A program made the position numbers and the translations under genes. Of a stretch of DNA of 64,000 bases, positions 2,577 through 61,370 are shown piece after piece. The notes under the pieces are model-generated. The model did no database searches and was not told the origin of the DNA. It saw only the letters and a program-made list of their open reading frames with translations. How positions within the stretch are numbered: the first letter of the stretch is position 1; every line of letters begins with the position of its first letter. This DNA is from a virus. Taxonomy: Duplodnaviria > Heunggongvirae > Uroviricota > Caudoviricetes. Where the stretch lies: the IMG/VR virus record IMGVR_UViG_3300017778_003242, positions 15,284-79,283 of that record, one strand, 5' to 3'.

Positions 2577-2638
2577 AATAGTTGTTGACGCTGTCGCGAG
2601 GCCGCGTTAACCATTCCCCAAGCAAGAAGGAAGACCAC

Positions 2639-16840: not shown

Positions 16841-17457
16841 TATGCCAGCTCTTCCGGGCGAAGTTCAACGAGAGGAATGCCTTGCACCTGACCAGCTTCG
16901 ACCCACTGAAGGGTGACATCGAGACTGTCCGTGTCGAAGCGGACCGGCACATCGAATTCGCCGGTGACTGTGATCGCCTGTCCGCCGGTCGGCGCGACGA
17001 CGAACGTGATGACGCCGGTCGAATGGTTAATGGTGTAATGCGTAGTCAGGGTTTGCAAAACCCCGGCTTTGTAAACTTGAATGGTGCCGCTGACAGGCTT
17101 GTAGATGTTGCGGACGTATGAGCCCCCAGCATCGCTGTACGTCTTGGTGATCTGGAACGCCGTAAGCACGCCGTTGCCGGTGCCGATGTTCTCTTCAGTG
17201 AGCGTATAGTCCGCCCAATCCTTGAAGCGGAAGCCGTACGCCCGGCCACGCCGGATGTAGAAGAAGTTCAGGATTTGGCGATAGAGCTGTTGCGAGCCGA
17301 TGCCATACGAGATGTCATAGGCGCAGCGCTGTTGCGCCCAATTGATGTTGCGCTGTTCCTTGCCCGAAGCGAGTTGGGATACGCCCGTGTTGAAGCCGGG
17401 GCCACCTTTGGCCCCGCGCTCAACGTCTACAGGAAGGCGCACGTCATGGAACGACAT
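16840..17457 (-). CDS. distal tail protein, DUF2460 (GTA g12-like)
   Basis: MSFHDVRLPVDVERGAKGGPGFNT N-terminus is characteristic of DUF2460/TIGR02217. Lies directly downstream of the tape measure. Confidence 0.65.
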   Translation of the reverse strand: MSFHDVRLPVDVERGAKGGPGFNTGVSQLASGKEQRNINWAQQRCAYDISYGIGSQQLYRQILNFFYIRRGRAYGFRFKDWADYTLTEENIGTGNGVLTAFQITKTYSDAGGSYVRNIYKPVSGTIQVYKAGVLQTLTTHYTINHSTGVITFVVAPTGGQAITVTGEFDVPVRFDTDSLDVTLQWVEAGQVQGIPLVELRPEELA

Positions 17458-17459
17458 GG

Positions 17460-24267: not shown

Positions 24268-24780
24268 TTAGCCCCTGTGAATTCGTCCGCTCCGCTCGAC
24301 CAGACCGGAAGCGATCAGCCATTGATCCGCGATGGGATACTTCGGCATCTTCACGACAGCGCCTTCGGCGTATTCGATTGATTCGGAAACCGGCCCGGCG
24401 CGGCTGGAGCGCGACTTGACGGACGCGCCGTATTCATCGCGCGTCGGGGTTGGGTTCAGGGTAGCGGCGAGCGCGATGCGCGCGTACTCAGCCGTGGCGT
24501 TCTTGATCTCGCGAGGGATGCCATAGCGGATACGGTCGTTGTTGTCGCGCGCGGACAGGCGCGGCCACTGTGTCGCCTGACTTTCATCGGCGACATAGCC
24601 GACGAACGTGAAGCGCGTATCGAGGTATTGGGAAGCGCGGATGATGGCCGCTTGGATGGCCGCTGTGTCACCCGTATAAGTCTGGGCGCGATCGGCGTGA
24701 TAGGTCGTGAAGAAGGCGACCGAGATGTAGGCGTTCGCATCAGCGACCGAACCGTTGTCGTCCTGAAGAGTGAAGGCCAT
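24268..24780 (-). CDS. head-tail connector (adaptor) protein
   Basis: Roughly 170 aa. First gene after the capsid block. Confidence 0.4.
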   Translation of the reverse strand: MAFTLQDDNGSVADANAYISVAFFTTYHADRAQTYTGDTAAIQAAIIRASQYLDTRFTFVGYVADESQATQWPRLSARDNNDRIRYGIPREIKNATAEYARIALAATLNPTPTRDEYGASVKSRSSRAGPVSESIEYAEGAVVKMPKYPIADQWLIASGLVERSGRIHRG

Positions 24781-24868
24781 TTGGGTGGGGCTCCGATTGT
24801 GCGACCATATGGTTAACACCAAGCCCCGTGAAGTGCAAGGCCCACCTTTCGATGGGCCTTGCAGTCAC

Positions 24869-25783: not shown

Positions 25784-26749
25784 TTAGTTCGTGACGCCTT
25801 GGAGGACCGTGAGGCCTTTGCGCGAGAACTGCGCGAGGCCAGCGTACCACTTCACGCGGGTCAGCGAGGCGTCCGAGCCTTCCAGCGCGCCGATCTCATC
25901 GACGACGATGCCGCCGTTGGTGCGCGAAGTCAGGCCAGCCACGCCGTACTGGCGCGTGCCGTCGTCGAACGTGCCGAAGATGACCGCAGTTTCGGTCTGC
26001 GCGGCAGTTTCGCCGAGGTTGGTCGGCAGGTATTCGTTCTTGAAGATCGGGACGCCTTCGTAGGCAATCACGATGTCGCCGCTTTCCAGCGTGACAACGT
26101 CGTCGATCGCGGCACCGCCGAGCGCGCGGAGCAGGGCTTTGTAGGCCCGGCGCGTGCGTGCGGCCATGACGATGTAGTCCACGACGCCGTCCTTGTCCTT
26201 CACTTCGTCCATGGCCGTGTCCATGTCGAGGAAGGACAGAGCGCCCGTTCCGTCAACTTGGCTGTCGGCGAGGACGAGCAGGCCGTCGAACTGGAGCGAG
26301 GACACGCTCTCGTTGCCGTTCATCATCAGGTCTTGGTAGATACGACCAACCTGCTTGGCTTTCGCGGCGATCTGCGAAGCCGTCTGGTCGGTCGTGTCCG
26401 ACATCTGCGCCTGCACCAGACCGTTCACTTCGGCGTCGCCGATGATGGTCTTCAGGGTGAAGGTTTCCTGCGTCCAAGTCGCAGGGTCTTTGAAGTTCGT
26501 ACCCGCGCCGACACCGGCGATGGCCGGGATGCCGTTGGCCGGGACAGCGCCAGCGAGCGAGCCGCCGACAGCCGCAAGACCAGCACCGGCGAGAGCGTTC
26601 TCGCGGTTAACGGTCAGGCCCGTGCCTTCGTACGAGTCGAAGGGGAGAACCTGATACATCTGGTTCACGGTGATGATGTCTTCGATGATGCCCGCGACGA
26701 GTTCGTCTTGGGTCAGTAGACCAGCTTGGACTTCGGACAGAACCGTCAT
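25784..26749 (-). CDS. major capsid protein (HK97 fold)
   Basis: 321 aa. Composition and position (after the scaffold, before the connectors) are typical. Confidence 0.65.
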   Translation of the reverse strand: MTVLSEVQAGLLTQDELVAGIIEDIITVNQMYQVLPFDSYEGTGLTVNRENALAGAGLAAVGGSLAGAVPANGIPAIAGVGAGTNFKDPATWTQETFTLKTIIGDAEVNGLVQAQMSDTTDQTASQIAAKAKQVGRIYQDLMMNGNESVSSLQFDGLLVLADSQVDGTGALSFLDMDTAMDEVKDKDGVVDYIVMAARTRRAYKALLRALGGAAIDDVVTLESGDIVIAYEGVPIFKNEYLPTNLGETAAQTETAVIFGTFDDGTRQYGVAGLTSRTNGGIVVDEIGALEGSDASLTRVKWYAGLAQFSRKGLTVLQGVTN

Positions 26750-26896
26750 CTTTGTATTCCTTTGTCTGTGCCCTCATGGGCGTGGAGTGCCGGGGTGGCC
26801 CTCCAAAATGGAAAAGGGCACCATGCCTAAGCACGATGCCCTTCTTGTACCAAGCCATTGATGGACTGTCAAGTCCATGGTTAATGGCAGAGCTTA

Positions 26897-27730
26897 TCAG
26901 CCACGCGCCGCGCGCCGCGCACGAAGCCCGTCCGCGATCTTCTGCTTGGACGATTTGTTCGACGGATCGACAGCGTTCACTTGGCGTTGGTCGGTCTTCT
27001 TGGACGGCACATTGCCGCCCCCACTTGCAACTCGCCCCTCGAATGCGGGAGCGAATTTGTCGTCTTTCTTCATGACTTCCACGAGCTGCGGAACAGTCAT
27101 CGGATCGCCTTGGCCGTTGTAGCGAATCTCGCCTTTGTCGTCGAGAACGCGGACGGCGTACGTGCCGTCGTCCTGCTTGACGACCTTGGTCTGGCGATCG
27201 ATGTGCGGACGCAGGAAGAGCGAGTTGCCCTTGTGCTCCGACAGCGCCGAGTTGGCGACATCGCCGACCATGTAGTTGAAGAGCGAGCCCTGCATCTGGG
27301 CGAGTTCGCCGTCCTTGGCTTTCAGGGCTTCGGCCTTGTCGCGAGCCATCTCAGCCTTGACGGCCTCGATCTGGCGAATGGCATCGTCGCCTTTCTTGCC
27401 ACCGGCAGTTGCCTTAACGGCAAGCGCGTCGAGATAGGCCTTCAGGCCTTCGGGCGTGCGCTGGTCTTCCGGGAGATCGGGGAGGGCTTCGACGATAGCC
27501 TTGAAGCTGGAAGCCGACTGGCGGAATTCCTGCGCTTCCTTGTTCTTGTTGGTGACCTTGGTGCGTTCGGTCTTCAGGTTCGTCGAAAGACCGTTGATAC
27601 GCTTGGCCGCGCCGACCATCGTCGGGGCCACTTTGTAGCCGGTGCCGTCCTTGGCGTAGAAATGCTTCAGGTCGTCCGGAACGCTGTCGAGATTTTCGAT
27701 GGCGCTGTCCAGATCAAATTCGTATTCCAT
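26897..27730 (-). CDS. scaffolding protein
   Basis: Highly charged, Ala/Lys/Glu-rich helical protein between portal and capsid. AAGGG SD before ATG 27730. Confidence 0.5.
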   Translation of the reverse strand: MEYEFDLDSAIENLDSVPDDLKHFYAKDGTGYKVAPTMVGAAKRINGLSTNLKTERTKVTNKNKEAQEFRQSASSFKAIVEALPDLPEDQRTPEGLKAYLDALAVKATAGGKKGDDAIRQIEAVKAEMARDKAEALKAKDGELAQMQGSLFNYMVGDVANSALSEHKGNSLFLRPHIDRQTKVVKQDDGTYAVRVLDDKGEIRYNGQGDPMTVPQLVEVMKKDDKFAPAFEGRVASGGGNVPSKKTDQRQVNAVDPSNKSSKQKIADGLRARRAARG

Positions 27731-27839
27731 GTTCCCTTTGCCTCGCGCTTTGGGGTAGTAACTGTGGCCTCTCGCCACGATCCCCGAACGGCCTCACGCC
27801 TTTCGAGTGACCCCAAAATGGCAGAACATGGTTAACGCG

Positions 27840-28367
27840 TCAAGCCCCGCGTCCGCGCTCCCAGTCGATCTGGGACTTCCCATCGACTTCCTGAACGCGC
27901 GCCGTCCAGCCGTTCTTGAATGTCGGCCAGTGCGGGAGCGTCTTCATGAATTCGAGGCGTTTGGCATTGTATTCAGCCAGTTTTTCCTTCGGCGCGTGGA
28001 ACACCGCGGCAACGGTTTTGGGGCCGATGACGCCATCCGGAGTGAGCCCGAGAACGGTCTGAAGGACGCGCACCGCGCGCCCCGGTCCGGAGTTATAGGC
28101 GAAGTCCACGACCGCGTAATCCCAGCCATGCTGGAGCTTGTCGCCCTTAACGGCCATCCAGTATTTGACATTGAAGATCGCCCGAGCCTGTTGGCGCGTG
28201 ATCATCTTGACGCTGTACGGCGCGGTGCCGGACGCGGCCAGATACTCGTTGAAGACCTTCTGCGTCACGCCAAGATTGGTCGCGCCGCCGGGGTCTTTCG
28301 GATTATCGACGTAGCCGCCTTCGTGCGCGAGCATACGTTCGAAGATGCGTTCGAAATTCGGCGTCAT
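27840..28367 (-). CDS. endolysin, glycoside hydrolase family 108 + peptidoglycan-binding domain
   Basis: EGGYVDNPKDPGGATNLGVT GH108 signature. C-terminal LGLTPDGVIGPKT PG_binding_3-like motif. Confidence 0.8.
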   Translation of the reverse strand: MTPNFERIFERMLAHEGGYVDNPKDPGGATNLGVTQKVFNEYLAASGTAPYSVKMITRQQARAIFNVKYWMAVKGDKLQHGWDYAVVDFAYNSGPGRAVRVLQTVLGLTPDGVIGPKTVAAVFHAPKEKLAEYNAKRLEFMKTLPHWPTFKNGWTARVQEVDGKSQIDWERGRGA

Positions 28368-43446: not shown

Positions 43447-43594
43447 TTGGTCATTCCTTGCTAGAGCCCCAGTGCGGAGCGGTCAGACGTGTTATGCAGG
43501 CAGCGTGCCACATCGTCAACAACTATTTTACTGCATTAGATAAAAAGATGGCCGGACACGAATGCCCGGCCATGTTCTTACTGAGTTCGGTAAA

Positions 43595-43671
43595 TGGTAC
43601 GAAGGGAAAGAATCGAACTTTCGACCTCGCGGTTATCAACCGCGCGCTCTTCCCAACTGAGCTACCCTCGC
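43595..43671 (-). tRNA. tRNA-Ile (anticodon GAU)
   Basis: Reverse complement reads GCGAGGGTAGCTCAGTTGGGAAGAGCGCGCGGTTGATAACCGCGAGGTCGAAAGTTCGATTCTTTCCCTTCGTACCA. D-arm GCTC/GAGC, anticodon stem CGCGG/CCGCG with loop TTGATAA, T-arm GAAAG-TTCGATT-CTTTC, encoded CCA. Confidence 0.7.
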
Positions 43672-44182
43672 AAACGGTTAGTCGCGAGACATGGTAATTC
43701 GCTTCGGACCCTTGGACTTGCGGGCGAGCGCGGCCAGAGGCTTCGCCGCGGGTTTCTGGGCGACGGCTTTCTTCTGACGGGACTTCTTCAGCATGGACAT
43801 GGGCAATACCCCTTGAAATGATGGCCCGCCCGTACGCCGGAGCGCAGAGGGACGGGGCGTTACCTTTACGTTGTCCCATGTCCATGGACGGAAGTCAAGA
43901 CTATCGGGCTGTGGGCCGATAAGGGCTGTTATCGGGCGATGGGCCTTACCCCCTGCGGAGGCTAGAAGCCTTTTAACCCCCGTAAGGGATAAATTTCTAA
44001 AATTTTTTATGAAATCAAGGGGCTAAGAGGCGGGGCTATAATATAAGTACCCCCGGTCTAATTTCCTACCCTCATACGAGCGTATAATGACTGGCGTAGT
44101 AAGGTTAATGACCCATGTTGGGGCATTACCCCCTGTTAGGGTTAACAAATCCCTAAGCGGTAAGGTTAATCGATCGTTAAGG

Positions 44183-44300
44183 TTAATAAATAATAAAAAT
44201 AATAAATAATTAATTATTTATTATTTATTAATGTTACATTACATACTGTTAATGTTACATGCTATGTATATACTATGTGTTAAGGTTAATAACATACTAA
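44183..44300. repeat. nearly pure A/T low-complexity tract with palindrome AATAAATAATTAATTATTTATT
   Basis: Roughly 120 bp almost devoid of G/C in a 60% GC genome. Contains a perfect 22-bp AT palindrome at 44201-44222 and flanking AAGGTTAAT motifs. Confidence 0.6.
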
Positions 44301-44654
44301 TGCACACACCATGCTGTATAGGTTAATTGTTATTAACCATGCTCTATATAAGGGGGCTTAAATAGAGGGGGCTTAGCAGTGGGTTAACCTTAACAGAAAG
44401 CCACATTCTGTTAAGGTTAATAATTTGCGAATTTCTGGTATGGTTAATAAAGACCCTCAAAAAATTAACCAAGAAAGTAAGGTTAACAAATCATGTTGAA
44501 AAATTAACCCTAACAATGGATTAATTTAGTACCTCACAATTAGATTAAATTCATTTGAAATAACTGCCAATATCCCGCTATTCCGATAAAGGTAAAGAAA
44601 CCCATCATCCCTAACAGTCGCTTAATAGTGATCATGAAATTCCCCTTGTGTGGT

Positions 44655-44686
44655 AAGCCCCCTCTTTAGGAGGGGGCTTAGCCTTT
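44655..44686 (-). terminator. terminator downstream of minus-strand gene 44686-44934
   Basis: AAGCCCCCTC-TTT-AGGAGGGGGCTT hairpin. Confidence 0.5.
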
Positions 44687-44934
44687 CATTTACCGATGCC
44701 GAACTGGGCGGCGAGATTGCCTAACGCTTGGTTAAACCAGTAGATGAATTCCGCTTCCGTCTTGATCGTGCGGCCCTTCATCTGGGCGAGGCGTTGGGCG
44801 CGTTTCAGAACGTACAGGATAGGCTCTTTACCCTTGTAACCGAGCCCTGCGGCGATCTCGTCAATCGCGGCTTTCGTGGCGCTTGCGCCCGGCTGAGTGG
44901 CGTCGTTCAGTTTGGTCCAGTAAGAGGTGGTCAT
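44686..44934 (-). CDS. hypothetical protein (82 aa), divergently transcribed from cassette 1
   Basis: ACGGAGA SD before ATG 44934. Shares the palindromic operator with the rightward genes. Confidence 0.45.
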   Translation of the reverse strand: MTTSYWTKLNDATQPGASATKAAIDEIAAGLGYKGKEPILYVLKRAQRLAQMKGRTIKTEAEFIYWFNQALGNLAAQFGIGK

Positions 44935-45007
44935 TTGCTGTCTCCGTTTTGATGAGTTAGTTATGCCATAGGCTTGCAGGGAATGCAAGCGCATAATGCA
45001 GAATTCT

Positions 45008-45027
45008 ACATTACAAATTTGTAATGT
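45008..45027. promoter_or_regulatory. operator palindrome ACATTACAAATTTGTAATGT (cassette 1, divergent)
   Basis: Perfect 20-bp inverted repeat followed by AATGCA(A)AA..GCTATTGCATATCC and SD AACGGAG. Confidence 0.55.
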
Positions 45028-45110
45028 TCAAAATGCAGAAAATGCAAAAAAGGCTATTGCATATCCGGCCAACCTATGCGAGAAAGGGTCATCAACAACG
45101 GAGACACCAA

Positions 45111-45293
45111 ATGCAAATCAACTACCGCCAGACAGACGAAGAAATCCGCCGCGAATGGGCGGGCGTCGAGCGCCGCGCGCCGATCACGGCAGAAACGGCT
45201 CCCAAAGCCGTCGTGAAGCGCGACCGCTTCGCTTGCGTGGTTGTGGCCGTGTTCGTGGCCGTCGCGATCCTCGGCGTTGTGGTGACGTTCTAA
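45111..45293 (+). CDS. small membrane protein (60 aa)
   Basis: ATG 45111 after CAACAACGGAGAC SD. C-terminal TM (FACVVVAVFVAVAILGVVV). Confidence 0.45.
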   Translation: MQINYRQTDEEIRREWAGVERRAPITAETAPKAVVKRDRFACVVVAVFVAVAILGVVVTF

Positions 45294-45454
45294 TGGACAC
45301 GGAAAACAGCCTTTACCTGCATGGCCGCAAGCCTACGCTGGGCGAGATCATGCGACAGCTCAAAATCGTCGAGAAAGTCTGCCAAGAGATTCGCGACGAA
45401 GAGACTTCCTTTCAACCCCGCGACCAATTCGCGGAATTGCTTTTCGAGGATTGA
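45293..45454 (+). CDS. small protein (53 aa)
   Basis: TAATG-coupled. MDTENSLYLHGRKPTLGEIMRQ... Confidence 0.35.
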   Translation: MDTENSLYLHGRKPTLGEIMRQLKIVEKVCQEIRDEETSFQPRDQFAELLFED

Positions 45455-45458
45455 TCAC

Positions 45459-45779
45459 ATGCCCGGAGATATGGAACTGATCGCCAGCGACGCGCGCGGA
45501 ATTTACATTCCGCAGCATGTGGCCGAAGCTTGCACGCTGGAGCCTATCAGGAAGACGCCGCAAAGCATCGCCCGGCTAGCCGTCAACGTGGCGACATGCC
45601 TAGAAGGGCCGGACGCCGAAAACTACTGGGAAGCATGGAGCGAGATTCTAGACCTAGCCTGCATCCGAGTCGGACGCGCGCGGTGGTCGCTCTATCAGGA
45701 CGGCGATTGCTGGGCAATTCGAATGTGTGCCCGCGCGCGGAAAGAAGCGGCCCACGCGTTTGGGTGGGATGTGGATTGA
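45459..45779 (+). CDS. hypothetical protein (106 aa)
   Basis: GAGGA SD before ATG 45459. Confidence 0.4.
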   Translation: MPGDMELIASDARGIYIPQHVAEACTLEPIRKTPQSIARLAVNVATCLEGPDAENYWEAWSEILDLACIRVGRARWSLYQDGDCWAIRMCARARKEAAHAFGWDVD

Positions 45780-45787
45780 AGCAAGAA

Positions 45788-45823
45788 CCATGCCAACCGC
45801 GAGGTCGGCATGGTTAATTTTTC
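45788..45823 (+). terminator. rho-independent terminator
   Basis: CCATGCCAACCGCGAGGTCGGCATGG hairpin + TTAATTTTTC. Confidence 0.6.
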
Positions 45824-45833
45824 TTCTCGGTTT

Positions 45834-45862
45834 GTTAACCTTAACAACCTATTAAGGTTAAC
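45834..45862. promoter_or_regulatory. TTAA-N7-TTAAG hairpin element (GTTAACCTTAACAACCTATTAAGGTTAAC), copy 1
   Basis: 11-bp inverted repeat conserved after several small genes. Matches the CtrA-box-like spacing TTAA-N7-TTAA. Confidence 0.45.
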
Positions 45863-45938
45863 AAATCATTAACGCGGAAAAATAGGTCGTCAATCCATTA
45901 TATCACAAAAATCCGACCGGGTCAAGAGGAAAAATGCA

Positions 45939-45958
45939 ACATTACAAATTTGTAATGT
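45939..45958 (+). promoter_or_regulatory. operator palindrome ACATTACAAATTTGTAATGT (cassette 2)
   Basis: Identical 20-bp palindrome. Downstream TTGCAT -35-like element and AACGGAG SD. Confidence 0.55.
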
Positions 45959-46035
45959 AGCAGAAAAATGCAAAAAGCCTATTGCATATCCTGATCAATG
46001 TGCTATCTCTATTGCATCAACAACGGAGCGACCAA

Positions 46036-46134
46036 ATGGAAACGGTTCTGAAAATCGCCTTTTTCTTCTTCCCTTCGGAAGAACTCAGCAACCGGATTTG
46101 CGCGGTGCGCTTTCACAAAAAATGGAGCCGCTAA
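46036..46134 (+). CDS. tiny protein (32 aa)
   Basis: ATG 46036 after the cassette-2 SD. Hydrophobic FFFF stretch. Below the ORF-track cutoff. Confidence 0.25.
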   Translation: METVLKIAFFFFPSEELSNRICAVRFHKKWSR

Positions 46135-46135
46135 C

Positions 46136-46396
46136 ATGAAACTGGGACCGAAAGACAAGGTTATTGCGAAGGGCCATTCGCTCGTGGTTTTCGAATGCAC
46201 GGACATGGGTCCGGACGATGGCAATCGTTATTTTGTCTGCTTCTCCAATGAGAACGGCAAACACTCGTCCAGCCTCGGCTGCGCCTTGTCCATGGGCTTC
46301 ATGGACGACAACGGAAGCGGCCAAGGCGATTTCAAGTTTACGCCTGTCCAGATGATTTTCCTCGAACGCACGGCGGACTCGCTCCCCGACTATTAG
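46136..46396 (+). CDS. hypothetical protein (86 aa)
   Basis: ORF. No motif. Confidence 0.4.
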   Translation: MKLGPKDKVIAKGHSLVVFECTDMGPDDGNRYFVCFSNENGKHSSSLGCALSMGFMDDNGSGQGDFKFTPVQMIFLERTADSLPDY

Positions 46397-46412
46397 TCAA
46401 GCGAATAGTGCA

Positions 46413-46432
46413 ACATTACAAATTTGTAATGT
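46413..46432 (+). promoter_or_regulatory. operator palindrome (cassette 3) with TTGACC-N17-CATAAA promoter
   Basis: GCAACATTACAAATTTGTAATGTTGC, then TTGACCTATGCAGTGAGCTATGGCATAAAGGGTCATCAACAACGGAG. Confidence 0.55.
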
Positions 46433-46509
46433 TGCACTTTTTTCGAATTATCCAGTTGACCTATGCAGTGAGCTATGGCATAAAGGGTCATCAACAACGG
46501 AGAACGTCA

Positions 46510-46713
46510 ATGACCAAGAAACACTTCATCGCCATCGCGAAGCGCATGGCCGACCACCGCTTCAACCTCTCGAAAATCTCGGACAAGGCGACGCGTGACG
46601 CAAGCCTGAACGTCCTCGACGACACGATTCGCGATCTGGCGATTACTTTCGGAGACGTTAACCCGAACTTCGATTTCCGCCGCTTCGCCGACGCCTGCGG
46701 TTTGCCCAACTAG
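46510..46713 (+). CDS. hypothetical protein (67 aa)
   Basis: ATG 46510 after AACGGAGAAC. Confidence 0.45.
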   Translation: MTKKHFIAIAKRMADHRFNLSKISDKATRDASLNVLDDTIRDLAITFGDVNPNFDFRRFADACGLPN

Positions 46714-46726
46714 GGAAAGGAAGAAT

Positions 46727-46762
46727 TAACCCTGCGCCCCCACCGCGCAGGGTTAATTTTTG
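46727..46762 (+). terminator. rho-independent terminator
   Basis: TTAACCCTGCGCCCCCACCGCGCAGGGTTAATTTTT. Confidence 0.6.
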
Positions 46763-46772
46763 GCCTCGCGGC

Positions 46773-46801
46773 GTTAACCTTAACAGCCTATTAAGGTTAA
46801 C
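46773..46801. promoter_or_regulatory. TTAA-N7-TTAAG hairpin element, copy 2
   Basis: GTTAACCTTAACAGCCTATTAAGGTTAAC. Confidence 0.45.
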
Positions 46802-46877
46802 AAACCATTAACGCGGAAAAAATGCTTTTAGCCTCAGAATATCATATAAAGCGAGCCGGGTCAATAAGAAAAATGCA

Positions 46878-46897
46878 ACATTACAAATTTGTAATGT
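46878..46897 (+). promoter_or_regulatory. operator palindrome (cassette 4) with TTGACG-N17-CATAAA promoter
   Basis: Near-identical duplicate of cassette 3. Confidence 0.55.
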
Positions 46898-46974
46898 AGC
46901 ACTTTTTTCGAATTATCCTGTTGACGTATGCAGAGAGCTATGGCATAAAGGGTCATCAACAACGGAGAACTGCA

Positions 46975-47241
46975 ATGACAATGTTTTCGGGCCAAGTTTC
47001 GGTTTCAGTGTTCCAATGCCTGACCATCGCGTCCGGGCTGGATATGTACCGGAAATTCAAAATGATGCCGAACCGCAACTATACGCCGAAAGCCATGATG
47101 GACGCGGCGTCGCGGATCACGGGCCAGAAATTCAAGGCTCGCGATTACGAAGGCGCTGCAATCGCCCTGCGGGCGCTGGCGGAAAAGACCAAGAACGAAA
47201 TCCACGCTGGCCAGCATGAAGGGAACTCGATCACCCCTTAA
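46975..47241 (+). CDS. hypothetical protein (88 aa)
   Basis: ATG 46975 after AACGGAGAAC. N-terminal hydrophobic segment. Confidence 0.45.
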   Translation: MTMFSGQVSVSVFQCLTIASGLDMYRKFKMMPNRNYTPKAMMDAASRITGQKFKARDYEGAAIALRALAEKTKNEIHAGQHEGNSITP

Positions 47242-47271
47242 GCCCGGCCCCGGCTCGGGGACGGGAGTTGA

Positions 47272-47303
47272 CCATGGCCCGAAAGGGCCATGGTTAATTT
47301 TTT
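47272..47303 (+). terminator. rho-independent terminator
   Basis: CCATGGCCCGAAAGGGCCATGG + TTAATTTTTT. Confidence 0.6.
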
Positions 47304-47313
47304 GCCTCAATCC

Positions 47314-47342
47314 GTTAACCTTAACAGCCTATTAAGGTTAAC
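47314..47342. promoter_or_regulatory. TTAA-N7-TTAAG hairpin element, copy 3
   Basis: CGTTAACCTTAACAGCCTATTAAGGTTAAC. Confidence 0.45.
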
Positions 47343-47418
47343 AACTCATTAACCGCCGAAAATAGGTCGTCAATCCATTATATCACAAAAATCCGGGCCT
47401 GTCAAGTAGAAAAATGCA

Positions 47419-47460
47419 ACATTACAAATTTGTAATAATGCAAAATAGCTATTGCATATC
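47419..47460 (+). promoter_or_regulatory. operator cassette 5 (ACATTACAAATTTGTAAT + ATGCAAAATAGCTATTGCAT)
   Basis: Variant of palindrome 1 followed by second palindrome ATGCAAAATAGCTATTGCAT. Confidence 0.5.
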
Positions 47461-47572
47461 CTCCAATCATGTGAGATACCTTGCACATCGAGAGAGGGGA
47501 GCGGGACAAGCAACCGCCCACCGGAAGCCCCGGCAGCTCCCCTCTCCCGACCAAAAAAATGGAGACGAAATC

Positions 47573-47839
47573 ATGAGCCGCGACCTGATCAATATCGACG
47601 CAGTGGCCCCCGCACATTGGGCCTGCTATTTCTTCAATGACGACCCGGAAGGCCTGTCTGATGCGGATATCGCCGCCGCTGATGCCTTCATCGCTCGCGT
47701 GGACGCTGGAGCCCCGGCGCACATGGACGAAGAGGAAGAGCATTATTTTGCGCATGGCCATCAGGTCGCGCTGCTTTGCCCCGAAGCGCCGCGCCTCGGT
47801 TGCACTCTGGCCATGTATTACTTTTTGAAGGAGGCATAA
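47573..47839 (+). CDS. hypothetical acidic protein (88 aa)
   Basis: GGAGA SD before ATG 47573. Confidence 0.45.
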   Translation: MSRDLINIDAVAPAHWACYFFNDDPEGLSDADIAAADAFIARVDAGAPAHMDEEEEHYFAHGHQVALLCPEAPRLGCTLAMYYFLKEA

Positions 47840-47841
47840 GC

Positions 47842-48138
47842 GTGGAACACTCAACGCAAATGGTTCTCGTCCTGCTTCATACGCGGATTCCGGGCAATGA
47901 GAATTGCGCTCGCATGACCCTCGATCGCCCGGCCACTAGGCGAGCCGCTGAGCGCTACGCGCGCGACGCGTGGGATTTGGTCGCGACGCTCGACGATCTC
48001 GCCCACCGCTTCGCGTGGGACTATAACCTGCCTGTCCTGTTGGCCCGTTCCATGCTGGTCACATGCTGTCAGGAAATTTACAAGCGGGAGGGGTTTGACT
48101 TCAATCAACCCCTCGACGTGATCCGGGAGGTTTTCTAG
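47842..48138 (+). CDS. hypothetical protein (98 aa)
   Basis: GTG start 7 nt after GAAGGAGG SD. Confidence 0.4.
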   Translation: MEHSTQMVLVLLHTRIPGNENCARMTLDRPATRRAAERYARDAWDLVATLDDLAHRFAWDYNLPVLLARSMLVTCCQEIYKREGFDFNQPLDVIREVF

Positions 48139-48383
48139 TGGCGCAATCGTTTGGTGGACGCCTGCGTCCAATCATTGAAGGGGTATACACGGAAGGCGCA
48201 CAAGCGCCTTCCAAGCCTCCCTTTGAGTGTGAGCGAACCGGCTGGACGCCCGCCGACCTATTGCCGCGATGGGTCGCGGATATCGGCTGGATTATCGGGC
48301 TATTGCTGCGCAAGATATGGCTTTACGTTTGTGCGCCGACCGGCGCACTGGCGTTCGGGATCGCCTTCCTGCATCTGAGCTAG
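48138..48383 (+). CDS. small membrane protein (81 aa)
   Basis: GTG start overlapping the upstream stop. TMs (GWIIGLLLRKIWLYVCAPTGALAFGIAFL). Confidence 0.35.
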   Translation: MAQSFGGRLRPIIEGVYTEGAQAPSKPPFECERTGWTPADLLPRWVADIGWIIGLLLRKIWLYVCAPTGALAFGIAFLHLS

Positions 48384-48465
48384 GGGTTTCTCTCCGTTTC
48401 CCCTAGTGACACTGGCCCGGCTTGCCACGCGCGCGAGCCGGGCCACTTTTTTGAAATAATGCAAA

Positions 48466-48490
48466 ATAGCTATTGCATACCCGGCTATTC
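48466..48490 (+). promoter_or_regulatory. operator cassette 6 (ATGCAAAATAGCTATTGCAT only)
   Basis: Second-palindrome copy without the ACATTACAAA element, upstream of gene 48531. Confidence 0.4.
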
Positions 48491-48530
48491 TATGCCATCA
48501 ATAGCAGGTCAGCAAAAACGGAGATGCGAC

Positions 48531-48806
48531 ATGGCTTTGACCTTCACCATCGACCAGTTTAACGAGTACATCGAGAATGGCCCGTACGCATGGCCCGGCG
48601 GATATCCGCTCTACTTCGTCACGCGTGACGGTGAGGCGCTGTCATTTGACGCCGTTCTCGCCAATATCGAGTACATTCGCGAGGCAATCCAGCAGGACTA
48701 TAGCACTGACTGGCGCGTGATCGCTTGTGAGATCAATTGGGAAGACGCCGACCTGATTTGCTCCCACACTGGCAAGCGAATCGAGTGCGCGTACCCGCAG
48801 GACTAA
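48531..48806 (+). CDS. hypothetical protein (91 aa)
   Basis: ATG after AAAAACGGAGATG. Confidence 0.45.
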   Translation: MALTFTIDQFNEYIENGPYAWPGGYPLYFVTRDGEALSFDAVLANIEYIREAIQQDYSTDWRVIACEINWEDADLICSHTGKRIECAYPQD

Positions 48807-48812
48807 GGAAAG

Positions 48813-48850
48813 GTTAACCGCGGCCCGCAAGGGTCGTGGTTAATTTTTCG
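48813..48850 (+). terminator. rho-independent terminator
   Basis: GGTTAACCGCGGCCCGCAAGGGTCGTGGTTAATTTTTC. Confidence 0.6.
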
Positions 48851-48859
48851 CCGCCGCGC

Positions 48860-48907
48860 GTTAACCTTAACAGCCTGTTAACCTTACCGCCCTGTTAAGG
48901 TTAACAA
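48860..48907. promoter_or_regulatory. TTAACC/TTAAGG hairpin element, copy 4 (expanded)
   Basis: GTTAACCTTAACAGCCTGTTAACCTTACCGCCCTGTTAAGGTTAAC. Confidence 0.4.
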
Positions 48908-48981
48908 CTCATTAACGCCGAAAAAATGGTTTTAGCCTCAGAATATCATAGCCCTGTCAAAGTGTCAAGGCATAAAATGCA

Positions 48982-49021
48982 ACATTACAAATTTGTAATA
49001 ATGCAAAATAGCTATTGCATA
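48982..49021 (+). promoter_or_regulatory. operator cassette 7
   Basis: ACATTACAAATTTGTAATAATGCAAAATAGCTATTGCAT, identical to cassette 5. Confidence 0.5.
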
Positions 49022-49070
49022 TCCTCCAATCATGTGGCATTGTCTCTTTATCAGAAACGGAGTTGATCAG

Positions 49071-49253
49071 ATGACCTACCTCGAAACCCGCGCCGCCGTC
49101 TCCCGCGCTCTTGAAGAGCCGGGCGTTGAACACGTCAATTCGGATGCCTTCTTCGCGGCGTGCGACAAGTGGGATATCGAGCCCGGCGATCTGGAAGACG
49201 CCCTGTTCGAGTGTGGCGTGCAAGAGGCGGAAGACCGCCGCCACTTTGACTAG
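49071..49253 (+). CDS. hypothetical acidic protein (60 aa)
   Basis: ATG after AAACGGAG. Confidence 0.4.
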   Translation: MTYLETRAAVSRALEEPGVEHVNSDAFFAACDKWDIEPGDLEDALFECGVQEAEDRRHFD

Positions 49254-49315
49254 ACTGGAGCCCCGAAAGCTCTGGAGCCCCTGAACCGGGCTCAACTGGA
49301 CTGGCCCGCAGTGGC

Positions 49316-49345
49316 TACCCGCCCTTAACCATGGGGCGGGTTTTT
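49316..49345 (+). terminator. rho-independent terminator
   Basis: CCCGCCCTTAACCATGGGGCGGG + TTTTTC. Confidence 0.55.
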
Positions 49346-49369
49346 CTTAGTTAATGCCTATTAACCAAG

Positions 49370-50200
49370 AAACTATGGTTAATGGCCCATTAACCTTAAC
49401 ACGCCGTTAACCTTAACGCCGTTAACCTTAATAGCCTGTTAAGGTTAACGGAGCATGAAAATTAATCGACGCGTCGGATTTATCGGTTATTAACCTTGAA
49501 GTCCCCCGCGGCTTCTCAAAGCTGAAGTCCCCCTCGGCCTTGAAGTCCCCCACGGCCTCTTGATTAACCTTAACAGATTAACCTTAATAGCCTGTTAAGG
49601 TTAATAAGAAATGTCTTATTAACATGCACGGCTCGCATCAGAATTTTCTTATGAATATATTAACCTTAACGCCTTGAAGTCCCCCTCGGCCTCTCGCAAA
49701 ATTAACCTAAACGGCGCTAATTAACCCTAATTTATAGCCGATTAAGGTTAATTAGTATACTTATAGACGAGGTTATACGGGCTGTTAGGGTTAATTTTAC
49801 GTTATACGGCGTTAAGGCTAATTAGCGCTCCGCCCTCCCGGCCTTATGGCTAATATAGCTCGACCATTAACCTTCCGCCCTATGGCGTCCAGTGTGAGGT
49901 CGCAAAAGGGGCATTTGGGCCTTTATTTATAAGGGTTTTTGACAATCACTACCTATTAACCTTCCTCTCATCTTAAAGTGCTGAGAAAATATTATGGATA
50001 ATGGAGTGTCCCAAAAGGGGATTGGCACCCTATTATAAACCCTAATAGGCTTAATTAGGGTGATGCCACCCTACTTATACGGGGACGGTAACCCTAACCG
50101 CCCTCCCCGCCCTGAGCTGGCTCTTCACCTATCTTAGGAACGTTATCGCGCACCGCCTTTTAACCTAAACGCTGCCCAACCTCTTAAGACGGGGTGACCC
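49370..50200. repeat. noncoding region densely packed with TTAACC(T)TAA / TTAACCAT motifs
   Basis: More than 25 copies of TTAACC or GGTTAA in about 830 bp. Includes tandem GTTAACCTTAA units and TTAACACGCCGTTAAC, a perfect TTAA-N7-TTAAC. Confidence 0.6.
49497..49692 (+). repeat. iteron-like direct repeats TGAAGTCCCC-NNGGCCT (x4)
   Basis: Copies at 49497, 49523, 49541 and 49674. Adjacent CGACGCGTCG palindrome and AT-rich stretch. Confidence 0.55.
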
Positions 50201-53312: not shown

Positions 53313-53519
53313 GTGGCTAACTTCCTGCTGCGCGGCACGGACATCAAAACCGGGCGCATCATGTTCTACACCGGCAAGCAAGGGCCGGAGGCGTTCACTG
53401 TTAACCGGCGTCTCGCTAAGGTTTACAAGCGAGACGACGGCGACGCTGACCTGACCTGCGAAAGTCTCAACAAGGGACGCGCGACGCATCGGATGGACTT
53501 CAATGTTGAACCGCTTTAA
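53313..53519 (+). CDS. hypothetical protein (68 aa)
   Basis: GTG start 6 nt after AAGGGAA. Confidence 0.35.
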   Translation: MANFLLRGTDIKTGRIMFYTGKQGPEAFTVNRRLAKVYKRDDGDADLTCESLNKGRATHRMDFNVEPL

Positions 53520-53739
53520 CCATTGGGTCGCGAAGCACTGGCGCGAGATCATCGTGGTTAACATGGTCGCTGGGGCATCAACCCTAATGTCGATCGTGGC
53601 CTATGTTGGCACGCGTCCCAATTGCGCACAAGACTATTCCCGAAATGGCGTGACGGTTCACTACCTGAGTTGCGTCCCGCCCGGCTACGGCCCTGCGATA
53701 CGGGCGCACCCGCCTGCGGACTTGCGCGGCCACACGTGA
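53503..53739 (+). CDS. small membrane protein (78 aa)
   Basis: TM (IIVVNMVAGASTLMSIVAYVG). Confidence 0.35.
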   Translation: MLNRFNHWVAKHWREIIVVNMVAGASTLMSIVAYVGTRPNCAQDYSRNGVTVHYLSCVPPGYGPAIRAHPPADLRGHT

Positions 53740-56272: not shown

Positions 56273-56428
56273 ATGGGCCACGTCTGCCAATGTGGCGAGC
56301 GCCACCGCTGGACGCTGTACGTTTACGCGCACCAAAGCGAGACGCTTGTTCACACGTGCAAGTGCGGTATCAAAACGAAACTGCGGCGGCTGATGACCGT
56401 ACCGAAGCGAGAACTGTTCTATGGTTAA
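56273..56428 (+). CDS. small zinc-ribbon protein (51 aa)
   Basis: CQCGERH...CKCG Cys pairs. Alternative GTG start at 56240. Confidence 0.3.
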   Translation: MGHVCQCGERHRWTLYVYAHQSETLVHTCKCGIKTKLRRLMTVPKRELFYG

Positions 56429-56566
56429 CGGTTAACCACGCGATCGGCAGTAAGGTTAAAGCGCCCGCGATCCGCGGCCATTAACCCTAACACTCACCGT
56501 CCGGCCACGTGGCACGGCGCTTGCATTGTGTTGTCTGGGCACATCAACGTGTCCCGATATTTGACA

Positions 56567-60628: not shown

Positions 60629-60758
60629 GCCCCGCAACGTCCCGGCGCGCAACCTCGCCCGCCCGGAGTGCAAGCCCCGCGTCATCCCGGACAAGCGGCA
60701 AGTGCGCCGCTATCTGATCGATGACAAGCGGATCATCGACCTTGGCCCTGTGGATTAA
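60606..60758 (+). CDS. small basic protein (50 aa)
   Basis: MKKKEPPKPRNVPARN... Confidence 0.3.
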   Translation: MKKKEPPKPRNVPARNLARPECKPRVIPDKRQVRRYLIDDKRIIDLGPVD

Positions 60759-60760
60759 CC

Positions 60761-61018
60761 ATGAACAAAGAACCCGGCTATCGCCCCTTTTGTCTTGTGT
60801 GCTCCACAATGGGGCGCATGACGATCACGCCGTCCGGCTTCCGCTGTGACGGCGACGGCGATGCGTTCGCACGGCCCGGCTGTGGCAACGAGATCGACCC
60901 GGACGGGCGACGCCTGCCCGGATCGCCCGGACCGTCTCCAGCGGCGCTGGAGGCGCAACGGCGCATAATGGAGAGCCCCGTGTCATTCGCCGCCTTGCTT
61001 GCCGCTTCGCGCCTGTAG
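60761..61018 (+). CDS. small Cys-containing protein (85 aa)
   Basis: CLVCS...CDGDGD...CGNE. Confidence 0.4.
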   Translation: MNKEPGYRPFCLVCSTMGRMTITPSGFRCDGDGDAFARPGCGNEIDPDGRRLPGSPGPSPAALEAQRRIMESPVSFAALLAASRL

Positions 61019-61139: not shown

Positions 61140-61370
61140 CGGCTATGAAGTAAGATTAATGGCGTTGGCGGTGAAATCCCGCGTGTTAATCAGGGCCGGG
61201 AAGTAGTGTTAACACCTGTACCCCGGCCCGCCCAACACAAGAAATCGCAGTAAGGTTAACATGACACCGCCCTCATGTTAAGATTAACGGCGATCGTTGC
61301 TATTAACCCTAACGGCAGTTTCGTTTCATTAACCTTAATTCGCGTTAACCATAACGCCGCGCCGCGATCT
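61140..61370. repeat. second TTAACC / TTAACCAT motif cluster
   Basis: GTAAGGTTAAC, ATGTTAAGATTAAC, TATTAACCCTAAC, CATTAACCTTAAT, CGCGTTAACCATAACG. Confidence 0.5.

Follow-up and report, generated by a model that had tools for sequence, protein, structure and literature searches.

Predicted CtrA-binding sites are packed into the control region between divergent gene blocks of a siphovirus

Results

We analyzed a 64,000-nucleotide stretch of a tailed-phage genome (IMG/VR record IMGVR_UViG_3300017778_003242, positions 15,284 to 79,283; here called the window), in which motifs resembling the binding sites of CtrA, a regulator of the alphaproteobacterial cell cycle, are packed into a 6.3-kb gap (43900-50200) between divergent gene blocks. 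We consider it likely that these motifs are bound by the CtrA protein of the host, and that they have accumulated in the control region between the two blocks, with additional half-sites at late promoters. Judged from the sequence, the sites are of CtrA type, noncoding, conserved, and arranged in a manner that would suit occupancy by several dimers. The phenomenon has already been published (Mascolo et al. 2022; PMC9437464), and the window represents a further and particularly orderly case.

The window has the appearance of a lytic siphovirus with a GC content of 58%. It encodes terminase, portal, scaffold, major head protein, a tail module like that of gene transfer agents (GTAs), and helicases, as well as a deoxynucleoside monophosphate (dNMP) kinase, ribonucleotide reductase, thymidylate synthase, and a methyltransferase. 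Genes up to position 43885 lie on the minus strand and genes from 45111 on lie on the plus strand. The gap between them holds one further minus-strand gene (g60) and seven rightward cassettes, and it is flanked by two arrays of CtrA-type boxes (Table 1).

To set chance expectations, we used dinucleotide shuffles of the window sequence; noncoding DNA, as delimited by heuristic gene calls, made up 16% of the window. The half-site octamer TTAACCAT or its complement occurred 18 times versus 0.74 ± 0.75 in shuffles (shuffle maximum, 3), and 15 of the 18 copies touched noncoding DNA, which bears out the enrichment claimed in an earlier note on this DNA. All positions listed in that note were recovered, each at most 10 nt off (5576, 24809, 26877, 27828, 44333, 44440, 45810, 47290, 49325, 49375, 56421, and 61345), and six further sites were absent from its intergenic list (2607, 17023, 17456, 42986, 53516, and 60755). 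Perfect full sites (TTAA-N7-TTAA) numbered 13 against an expectation of 0.15, and every one of them was noncoding and located within 43900-50200. With up to one mismatch, the count rose to 34 (4.9 ± 2.5 expected), including 33 in the gap and 32 in noncoding DNA. The hexamer TTAACC/GGTTAA was found 79 times (11.8 ± 3.3 in shuffles), with 71 copies touching noncoding DNA. When the AT-richer gap was shuffled alone, there were still 13 full sites versus 0.28 and 53 copies of TTAACC/GGTTAA versus 3.9. Both full sites and half-sites therefore lie far above the composition-matched background against which the earlier note had proposed to judge them. A perfect box, TTAA-CACGCCG-TTAAC, that had been reported near 49395 is present at 49396-49411. 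The octamer is not the leading noncoding word, as had been supposed; that place belongs to TTAACCTT/AAGGTTAA, with 33 noncoding copies versus 12 of TTAACCAT.

The full sites are clustered as well as enriched. Using 50 bins and a cutoff of 0.75, after Mascolo et al. 2022, and working from a consensus proxy in a 64-kb window, we obtained a normalized positional entropy of 0.58 for perfect full sites and 0.455 for those with up to one mismatch. The half-sites are dispersed across the window (positional entropy, 0.95).

Within the gap, the motifs follow a regular lattice. Distances from one TTAA start to another peak at 6 bp (21 pairs), 11 bp (13 pairs), and 17 bp (23 pairs); elsewhere in the window, the 6-bp distance is down to four pairs and the other two are missing. 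This is the pattern of full boxes (TTAAY-N5-RTTAA) packed head to tail with a 2-bp linker of CC or GG. The 12-mer GTTAACCTTAAC is the junction between two adjoining boxes, and a 29-nt palindrome, which the earlier note had described as a hairpin behind small genes, is made of two GTTAACCTTAAC junctions in inverted orientation around one full box. Copies with zero to two mismatches stand where they had been placed, at 45834, 46773, 47314, and 49421, and a weaker copy starts at 49577. The copy reported at 48860 proved to be a split three-unit variant (48860-48911), and a long-loop variant occupies 44382-44421. It was an overstatement that the palindrome follows each early gene, since it follows five of the seven cassettes. 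The 12-mers are also found in direct orientation at the same 17-bp pitch, both here (48860-48911 and 49389-49433) and in loci L007 and L043. As RNA, the 29-nt palindrome folds with -10 to -12.5 kcal/mol. It fails the test for an intrinsic terminator, being AT-rich with no T-run on either strand, and true terminators lie 10 nt upstream of it. This layout makes box packing the best account of the "hairpin", which would then be a by-product rather than a structure in its own right.

The same words and spacings occur in phages of Alphaproteobacteria. When the right array was searched with blastn against 50,697 phage records, 26 matched, all from alphaproteobacterial hosts (Brevundimonas, Caulobacter, and Erythrobacter) and all in unannotated gaps or terminal repeats. 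Specifically, positions 49359-49442 align in register (~84 nt) with a probe from Brevundimonas phage Delta that phosphorylated CtrA shifted in an electrophoretic mobility shift assay (EMSA). The window shares the 6-, 11-, and 17-bp lattice with the gaps of Delta and BabaJaga, Erythrobacter L02, L007, the terminal repeats of the Caulobacter phages CcrSC and CcrBL9, and a 163-kb viral contig. The exact palindrome is found in CcrBL9 (322,272 bp) and CcrSC (317,489 bp), where every copy lies inside the terminal repeats, as well as in a 163-kb Erythrobacter-phage-like contig, a contig with 66% GC, and further metagenomic contigs. It stands 15 to 17 nt after a terminator in CcrSC, CcrBL9, and the 66%-GC contig. 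The succession of terminator and palindrome, which had been thought unusual, is therefore seen again in both Caulobacter phages, within their terminal repeats, and in further viral contigs. Furthermore, homologs of the GTA-type host-specificity protein belong, among the organism names tallied, almost only to phages of Alphaproteobacteria.

A search of 185,579 bacterial and archaeal species for the exact palindrome gave four matches, three of them in Alphaproteobacteria. In these three (two Methylopila and one Hansschlegelia), the start codon of a flagellin gene (Pfam Flagellin_N, E = 5e-15) follows 55 nt downstream of the palindrome, and a metagenome contig repeats this context. By our reading, the inner box of these flagellin promoters is near the -35 element. 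Flagellar genes are established as the ancestral CtrA regulon (PMC9437464).

These findings fit what has been reported for CtrA and phages. Mascolo et al. (2022; PMC9437464) found that CtrA boxes cluster in the gaps or terminal repeats of phages of Alphaproteobacteria, among them Delta, phiCbK-like phages, CcrSC, CcrBL9, and Sphingomonas phage MMDA13. When we searched the literature for the words of the palindrome, the primer table of that paper was the only match. Phosphorylated CtrA gave EMSA shifts, and reporters were CtrA dependent, with repression in Delta (DELTA_120) and activation in phiCbK and Cp1R7A-A1. In their supplementary table, the inner boxes of the CcrSC palindrome are predicted CtrA sites, with scores of 9.9 to 13.6 from a position-specific scoring matrix (PSSM), 85 to 234 nt upstream of the next gene. 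The coupling of phage expression to the host cell cycle is their published proposal of "lytic deferment". Four of the features that mark LPEG phages, which have CtrA-site-dense gaps or terminal repeats, were found in the window: an excess of motifs, positional entropy below 0.75 (consensus proxy, 64-kb window), intergenic sites, and a gap between divergent blocks. The CtrA reading put forward in the earlier note is thus supported by the enrichment and noncoding placement of both site forms, the alignment with the Delta probe, the restriction of array matches to Alphaproteobacteria, and the flagellin palindromes, all of which bear on CtrA binding indirectly. A shared host factor would explain why one motif recurs in unrelated phages and at chromosomal flagellin promoters. 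In the window itself, tblastn and phmmer with a Caulobacter CtrA query found no CtrA homolog (best E = 0.3), a result to be taken only as a lead. Nor did we detect a helix-turn-helix, winged-helix, or other DNA-binding domain among ~38 window proteins compared with Pfam and ~40 compared with PHROG.

The sites are also conserved. Metagenomic relatives include a contig that is 96 to 97% identical (L009/L010/L029), one relative at 75 to 83% identity (L006/L030, of which L030, or rel2, has 83% identity overall in the left-array alignment), and several more-distant ones found via g60 homologs; freshwater samples such as JGI 3300017716 and 3300017766 are among their sources. All of them share the architecture of the gap, with a TTAACC array downstream of g60. 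In pairwise alignments with the relative at 75 to 83% identity, the TTAACC/GGTTAA words of both arrays stand out as conserved islands in diverged intervening DNA. No close relative was found among deposited phages when the region and 20 kb of structural genes were searched by megablast.

Table 1. Predicted features of the gap and of the half-sites outside it. Positions are those of the window; a dot marks features given without a strand.
Feature	Position	Strand	Details
Left array	44090-44520	.	14 TTAACC/GGTTAA words; half-sites 44333 (+) and 44440 (-); full box 44166
Long-loop palindrome	44382-44421	.	GGTTAACCTTAACAGAA-N7-TTCTGTTAAGGTTAAT; inner TTAA starts 21 bp apart
g60	44686-44934	-	82 aa; only leftward gene in the gap
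g60 promoter-like site	45003-45031	-	TTGAAC-N17-TAGAAT; O1 palindrome ACATTACAAATTTGTAATGT within the spacer
Seven cassettes	45111-49253	+	Small ORFs g61-g71; each cassette with its own promoter and leader AAAGGGTCATCAACAACGGAG or a variant
Module 1	45787-45965	+	Terminator ending GGTTAATTTTT; palindrome 45834-45862; full box TTAACAAATCATTAAC 45858-45873; minus-strand promoter 45897-45925; O1 at 45939; repeat family D1
Module 2	46724-46904	+	Terminator; palindrome 46773-46801; full box 46797-46812; minus-strand promoter 46836-46864; O1 at 46878
Module 3	47267-47445	+	Terminator; palindrome 47314-47342; full box 47338-47353; O1 at 47419
Module 3 minus-strand promoter	47377-47405	-	12/12 consensus positions plus TG
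Module 4	48813-49008	+	Terminator; three 12-mer units at 17-bp pitch, 48860-48911; full box 48901-48916; minus-strand promoter 48940-48968; O1 at 48982
Right array	49317-49960	.	18 TTAACC/GGTTAA words; full boxes 49379, 49396, 49428, and 49584; palindromes 49421-49449 and 49577-49605; half-sites 49325 (terminator loop) and 49375
Four direct repeats	49493-49694	+	CCTTGAAGTCCCCCnCGGCCTCT; interleaved with the right array; repeat family D12
Half-site, dNMP kinase	2607-2614	+	GCGTTAACCAT; 25 nt upstream of the gene; 16 nt after TTGACG
Half-site, head-tail adaptor	24809-24816	-	Doubles as -10-like AACCAT, 18 nt after TTGCAC; upstream of gene 24268-24780
Half-site, major head protein	26877-26884	-	4 nt upstream of TTGACA-N17-TACAAG; ahead of gene 25784-26749
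Half-site, head scaffolding	27828-27835	-	TTAACCAT; 2 nt after TTGACG; upstream of gene 26897-27730; kept in L022-L024
Secondary cluster	56421-56486	.	Five words (ATGGTTAACGGTTAACC ... AAGGTTAA ... TTAACCCTAAC); upstream of g92
Secondary cluster	61208-61352	.	GTTAAC, AAGGTTAAC, TTAACCCTAAC, TTAACCTTAAT, GCGTTAACCATAAC

Between the arrays, each cassette holds one to three small open reading frames (ORFs) with a conserved leader and ribosome-binding site, and their proteins are kept in relatives rel1 and rel2. The cassette promoter reads TTGCAT or TTGACC, 10 nt, then CCTATGCGA or GCTATGGCA. Intrinsic terminators close five of the seven cassettes; in each, the stem finishes with GGTTAA and T5 comes next. 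Four inter-cassette spacers are copies of one ~180-nt module (mean column identity in alignment, 64%) with a fixed order of parts: the terminator, 10 to 12 variable nucleotides, the palindrome GTTAACCTTAAC-N5-GTTAAGGTTAAC, a perfect TTAAC-N6-TTAAC box, ~25 nt, a minus-strand promoter of the form TTGAC(A/C)-N17-TAT(A/T)(A/C)T with a preceding TG, the O1 palindrome ACATTACAAATTTGTAATGT, and the rightward promoter. The four leftward promoters are near-consensus sigma-70 promoters with an extended -10 element, matching the consensus at 12, 11, 10, and 9 of 12 positions and all having the TG. They read through the CtrA-type boxes into the 3' end of the preceding cassette. Their hexamers are invariant among the paralogous copies, with variation in the spacer, and the promoters are kept in L029 and L030; in the diverged relative, they are still compatible with the consensus (TAAAAT, TATGAT, and TATAAT). 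Because no conserved ORF lies downstream, these promoters probably make antisense RNAs.

The O1 palindrome was seen at 45008, 45939, 46413, 46878, 47419, and 48982, with a degenerate copy near 44230, so that it stands upstream of every cassette promoter as well as within the spacer of the g60 promoter. The g64-g65 cassette has as its terminator an extended copy of O1 (46407-46438) with T6 behind it. O1-like CATTAC...GTAATG palindromes were also observed in the gap of phage MMDA13 (L031 47860-47990).

Cassettes have been exchanged among close relatives. Compared with the relative at 96 to 97% identity, 46140-46442 (g65) and 48454-49389 (the g70 and g71 cassettes) are replaced by different genes. 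The breakpoints, as seen against L009/L010, fall at a gene start, in the repeated O1/O2 promoters, and in the array. The product of g70 (48531-48806, 91 aa), which is absent from that relative, matches phrog_18452 (labeled "DNA ligase") at 1e-20.

The left array encloses a pure A/T tract of ~50 nt (44183-44232). Its long-loop palindrome has a folding energy of -19.1 kcal/mol as RNA, and the rel2 copy differs once, in the loop. The CCTTGAAGTCCCCCnCGGCCTCT repeats in the right array are iteron-like, and all four are kept in rel2. At the right end of the gap, the word TTATACGG occurs three times in 49760-50095 (GAGGTTATACGGGC, ACGTTATACGGCG, and ACTTATACGGGGAC), beside GGGTTAA and TAACCCTAAC, and is kept in L030.

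Gene g60 is the only gene that always lies beside the array. It belongs to a narrow family found in metagenomes only: searches of Pfam, PHROG, and the PDB gave no match, and no homolog was found in the 50,697 phage records. Its product was modeled by AlphaFold as four helices (pLDDT, 82), and no known fold matched the model at E < 2.5. We rejected g60 as the common binder of such arrays, since every deposited phage with arrays lacks a homolog.

The left edge of the gap carries a minus-strand tRNA-Ile gene (anticodon GAT; 43595-43671), the only element to pass in an Rfam scan of the gap; the remaining matches were far under threshold. A 120-aa ORF at 43523-43885 is probably spurious because it overlaps this tRNA gene. 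Adjacent to it, a noncoding block (43880-44060) is almost identical in L030, where the surrounding DNA is only ~77% identical. The block contains an inverted repeat, CCGATAAGGGCTGTTATCGG, and matched nothing in Rfam; it might encode an RNA or serve in packaging or replication.

Outside the gap, half-sites accompany the promoters of the scaffold, major head, and adaptor genes, where they are retained, or relocated and kept, at the orthologous promoters of relatives. Their placement differs from promoter to promoter, being upstream of the -35 element, within the spacer, or at the -10 element of sigma-70-type sequences. For example, in a relative with 87% identity (L025), the half-site of the capsid promoter has moved from upstream of the -35 element into the spacer, and a GTTAAGGTTAAC 12-mer lies upstream; on sequence comparison, this shift is turnover under selection in which a site is retained. 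We rejected a fixed promoter role for TTAACCAT, as a TTGAC-like hexamer lies 17 to 18 nt upstream of AACCAT at only 2 of the ~10 dispersed sites. The half-site at the scaffold gene is immediately downstream of a minus-strand endolysin gene (phrog_315; 27840-28367), which sits in the head module, between the portal and scaffold genes.

Some TTAACCAT copies coincide with stop/start junctions (17456-17463, 53516-53523, and 60755-60762). There, in TTAACCATG, TAA is the stop codon of one gene and ATG is the start codon of the next. A G follows 9 of the 18 copies. The copies at 17456, 53516, and 60755 may reflect coding coincidence and lack a regulatory role.

GANTC is depleted 5.5-fold in the window (63 sites versus 345 ± 18 in shuffles). 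This sequence is the site of the alphaproteobacterial cell cycle methyltransferase CcrM and of HinfI-type restriction systems. The methyltransferase gene of the phage (35521-36186) belongs to phrog_6564.

Discussion

If the motifs are CtrA sites, several phosphorylated CtrA dimers would bind each array cooperatively, and the state of the CckA-ChpT-CtrA relay (cell cycle stage, motility, or piliation) would determine how strongly the early cassettes and the scaffold, capsid, and adaptor promoters are expressed. The boxes in the spacers start ~10 to 17 nt past a terminator, and the compound sites lie 140 to 170 nt upstream of rightward start sites (~110 to 120 nt in CcrSC) and at about +17 to +57 of the minus-strand sigma-70 promoters. 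This placement leads us to suggest that CtrA bound in the spacers may serve as an insulator or roadblock against read-through and antisense transcription, rather than as a classical -35 activator. At the half-sites of late genes, CtrA could either assist or repress. The net effect could likewise be in either direction, since published cases include both activation and repression.

Several observations weigh against binding by CtrA. At 140 to 170 nt (~110 to 120 nt in CcrSC), the compound sites are too distant for textbook activation from -35 and do not conform to a classical CtrA-activated promoter. The commonest word, TTAACCTT, is one base off the canonical half-site, and the 6-bp spacing of TTAA is not itself a CtrA dimer spacing. 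Two long-loop variants (the one at 44382 and another in a rel2 spacer) keep the symmetry with inner TTAA starts 21 bp apart instead of 11, a hint that symmetry or hairpin potential may also be under selection. In bacterial genomes, the exact palindrome is very rare (4 matches in 185,579 species). The entropy values come from a consensus proxy and a 64-kb window rather than from the PSSM of Mascolo et al. and a complete genome. Finally, CtrA binding is predicted, and an alphaproteobacterial host with CtrA is indicated only indirectly, by the homologs of the host-specificity protein, the phages that the array DNA matches, and the depletion of GANTC.

A more elaborate version of the CtrA reading is doubtful, although its elements can be stated. 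The ~180-nt module may be a CtrA-gated directional switch combined with an insulator, its copies may act as portable recombination joints, and the phage origin may be under CtrA control. When CtrA is absent, antisense RNAs like the OOP RNA of lambda, made from the strong antisense promoters, would silence the upstream cassettes. Phosphorylated CtrA at +17 to +57 would block both antisense transcription and read-through, and the cassettes would fire. Modules common to Caulobacter jumbo phages would move early-gene cassettes between unrelated alphaproteobacterial phages, and CtrA would govern the origin through the flanking arrays and the iterons and A/T tract they contain.

It is also possible, though unlikely, that the arrays are part of a replication origin or packaging site at which CtrA or another binder gates phage DNA replication, as CtrA does at the Caulobacter origin. 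We hold this as a minority view, and it does not exclude host CtrA as the factor that binds the motifs. The ~50-nt A/T tract in the left array and the four conserved iteron-like repeats interleaved with the right array would suit an origin, and other phages pair the array with repeats of their own: Erythrobacter L02 and L007 have CCAAAATGGC..TCCATAGCA in four to five copies, and Delta has GATTTTCCG..TCACCTTCACCG. No initiator gene was identified next to the region, however, the gap has a single DnaA-box-like match (up to one mismatch), and published reporters show that such sites affect transcription. GC skew is uninformative as a marker of the origin because gene orientation switches at the same place. 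CtrA control of a phage origin is not discussed in Mascolo et al. 2022. Direct repeats were observed at the same position in other array-bearing phages (L007 4300-4450, L042 2730-2850, and L040 100-230).

Alternatively, the palindromes might act as nucleic acid hairpins, whether as backup terminators, 5' stabilizers of antisense RNAs, cruciforms, or recombination hot spots, and their TTAA content would be secondary. We regard this as quite improbable. Their folding energies of -10 to -19 kcal/mol (z-scores, -3.8 to -7.3), their fixed distance of 10 to 17 nt from the terminator T-run with a variable distance to the next promoter, and their transcription from the minus-strand promoters would all be expected of a hairpin. 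So would the long-loop variants, which keep symmetry and lose the N7 spacing, and the cassette-swap breakpoints of near-identical relatives, which lie in repeated modules. Yet neither strand has a T-run after the palindrome, and the 12-mers are equally frequent in direct orientation at the 17-bp pitch (48860-48911, 49389-49433, L007, and L043). Furthermore, unrelated phages and flagellin promoters carry the same arms with no compensatory changes, a hallmark of sequence-specific recognition by a protein; this sample is biased, because the search demanded exact arms.

We think it highly improbable that GTTAACCTTAAC is recognized by a different protein, such as g60, an unrecognized early protein of the phage, or another host factor, with the likeness to CtrA sites being a coincidence. 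The dominant word TTAACCTTAA, with its 6-bp TTAA spacing, is no described CtrA dimer site, a TTAACC array lies downstream of g60 in every relative, and most phage proteins here have no known function. Against such a binder, equal words and the same lattice occur in unrelated Caulobacter, Brevundimonas, and Erythrobacter phages without a g60 homolog, and these share one small cassette protein with the window (~100 kb of array-bearing loci searched). In addition, CtrA shifts a Delta probe of like words, the palindrome is found at chromosomal flagellin promoters, and the two canonical CtrA forms, TTAACCAT and TTAA-N7-TTAAC, are independently enriched. Two other candidates were rejected outright: the cassettes are not integron attC cassettes, as they have their own promoters, GTTAACC misfits GTTRRRY, and no integrase was found among the scanned proteins; and an HpaI restriction-site reading fails because GTTAAC is enriched (32 copies in the window) rather than avoided.

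With host CtrA as the favored binder, an unrelated siphovirus of ~64 kb or more would join the phages that apparently read the CtrA relay of their hosts, which strengthens the case that CtrA reading has evolved repeatedly or spread among phages of Alphaproteobacteria. The example is unusually dense, with 13 perfect boxes, 79 core words, and half-sites at the scaffold, capsid, and adaptor genes. It should be a good system for asking how many CtrA dimers load per 17-bp lattice, whether they activate or repress, and whether they act on promoters, read-through, or replication. Moreover, the palindrome and promoter-leader module shared with CcrSC and CcrBL9, together with the cassette swaps, point to an exchange of regulatory cassettes between very different phages, which bears on how phages acquire early genes for host takeover. 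Relative to Mascolo et al. 2022, whose text does not mention palindromes directly behind terminators, conserved antisense sigma-70 promoters that face into the boxes, the swapping of cassettes at repeats, or a promoter-leader module common to CcrSC and CcrBL9, we would claim incremental additions: the lattice reading of the "hairpin", the putative antisense promoters, the module shared with jumbo phages, and cassette swapping.

Among known systems, the gap of Brevundimonas phage Delta also has a dense TTAA array in a large noncoding gap between divergent blocks, with the 6-, 11-, and 17-bp lattice, TTAACCTTAA words, and a small gene without assigned function beside the array. However, the gap described here spans 6.3 kb rather than 1.3 kb, it contains seven cassettes with internal box modules, half-sites occur at late promoters, and the two phages are unrelated, with no DNA match beyond the arrays.

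The terminal repeats of CcrSC and CcrBL9 (Bertelyvirus, LPEG) have the 29-nt palindrome with identical arms, placed after intrinsic terminators and before the next small gene. They also have the promoter-leader module (TTGAC, 10 to 11 nt, CCTATGCGA or GCTATGGCA, then AAAGGGTCATCAACAACGGAG), which is carried by at least 10 of their terminal-repeat cassettes; the blastn match alone is marginal (E = 0.09). The -10 element with leader CCTATGCGAgAAAGGGTCATCAACAACGGAG was noted at 45072-45104, 46473-46503, and 46938-46968, with counterparts in L012, L013, L016, L002, and L003. In addition, g70 has a 53%-identical homolog in the terminal region of CcrBL9 (L004 9763-9987). Unlike the phage in the window, CcrSC and CcrBL9 are jumbo phages (317 to 322 kb; 64% GC) with their cassettes in 24-kb terminal repeats, without a conserved antisense promoter, and with only distantly related structural genes.

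Sphingomonas phage vB_StuS_MMDA13 resembles the window in size and composition (63.7 kb, 59% GC), in its gap of ~1 kb between divergent blocks, and in the extended half-site GCGTTAACCAT; its gap has TGCGTTAACCAT direct repeats. In contrast to the window, that gap has about six words and no cassette array, and few tail proteins are common to the two, with 24 to 39% identity.

The cassette arrangement recalls the PeSL cassettes of T4-like phages, in which composite modules of terminator and early promoter flank small ORFs in a hypervariable region (PMC2839356, PMC4122927), and whole cassettes are gained, lost, or replaced between near-identical relatives with breakpoints in the repeats. The modules in the window differ in adding CtrA-type boxes, the O1 palindrome, and an antisense promoter. 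There is no sequence relationship or T4-like DNA match and the lineage is different, making the window an analog and not a member of that group.

Finally, the Caulobacter pilA promoter and Cori likewise combine several TTAA-N6/7-TTAA boxes and half-sites that act together. At targets of this type, sites located upstream are able to cause repression, and CtrA binding is possible at either the -10 or the -35 element. Whereas those targets have a few imperfect boxes at irregular spacing, the arrays in the window pack as many as four or five near-perfect boxes closely together, one every 17 bp.

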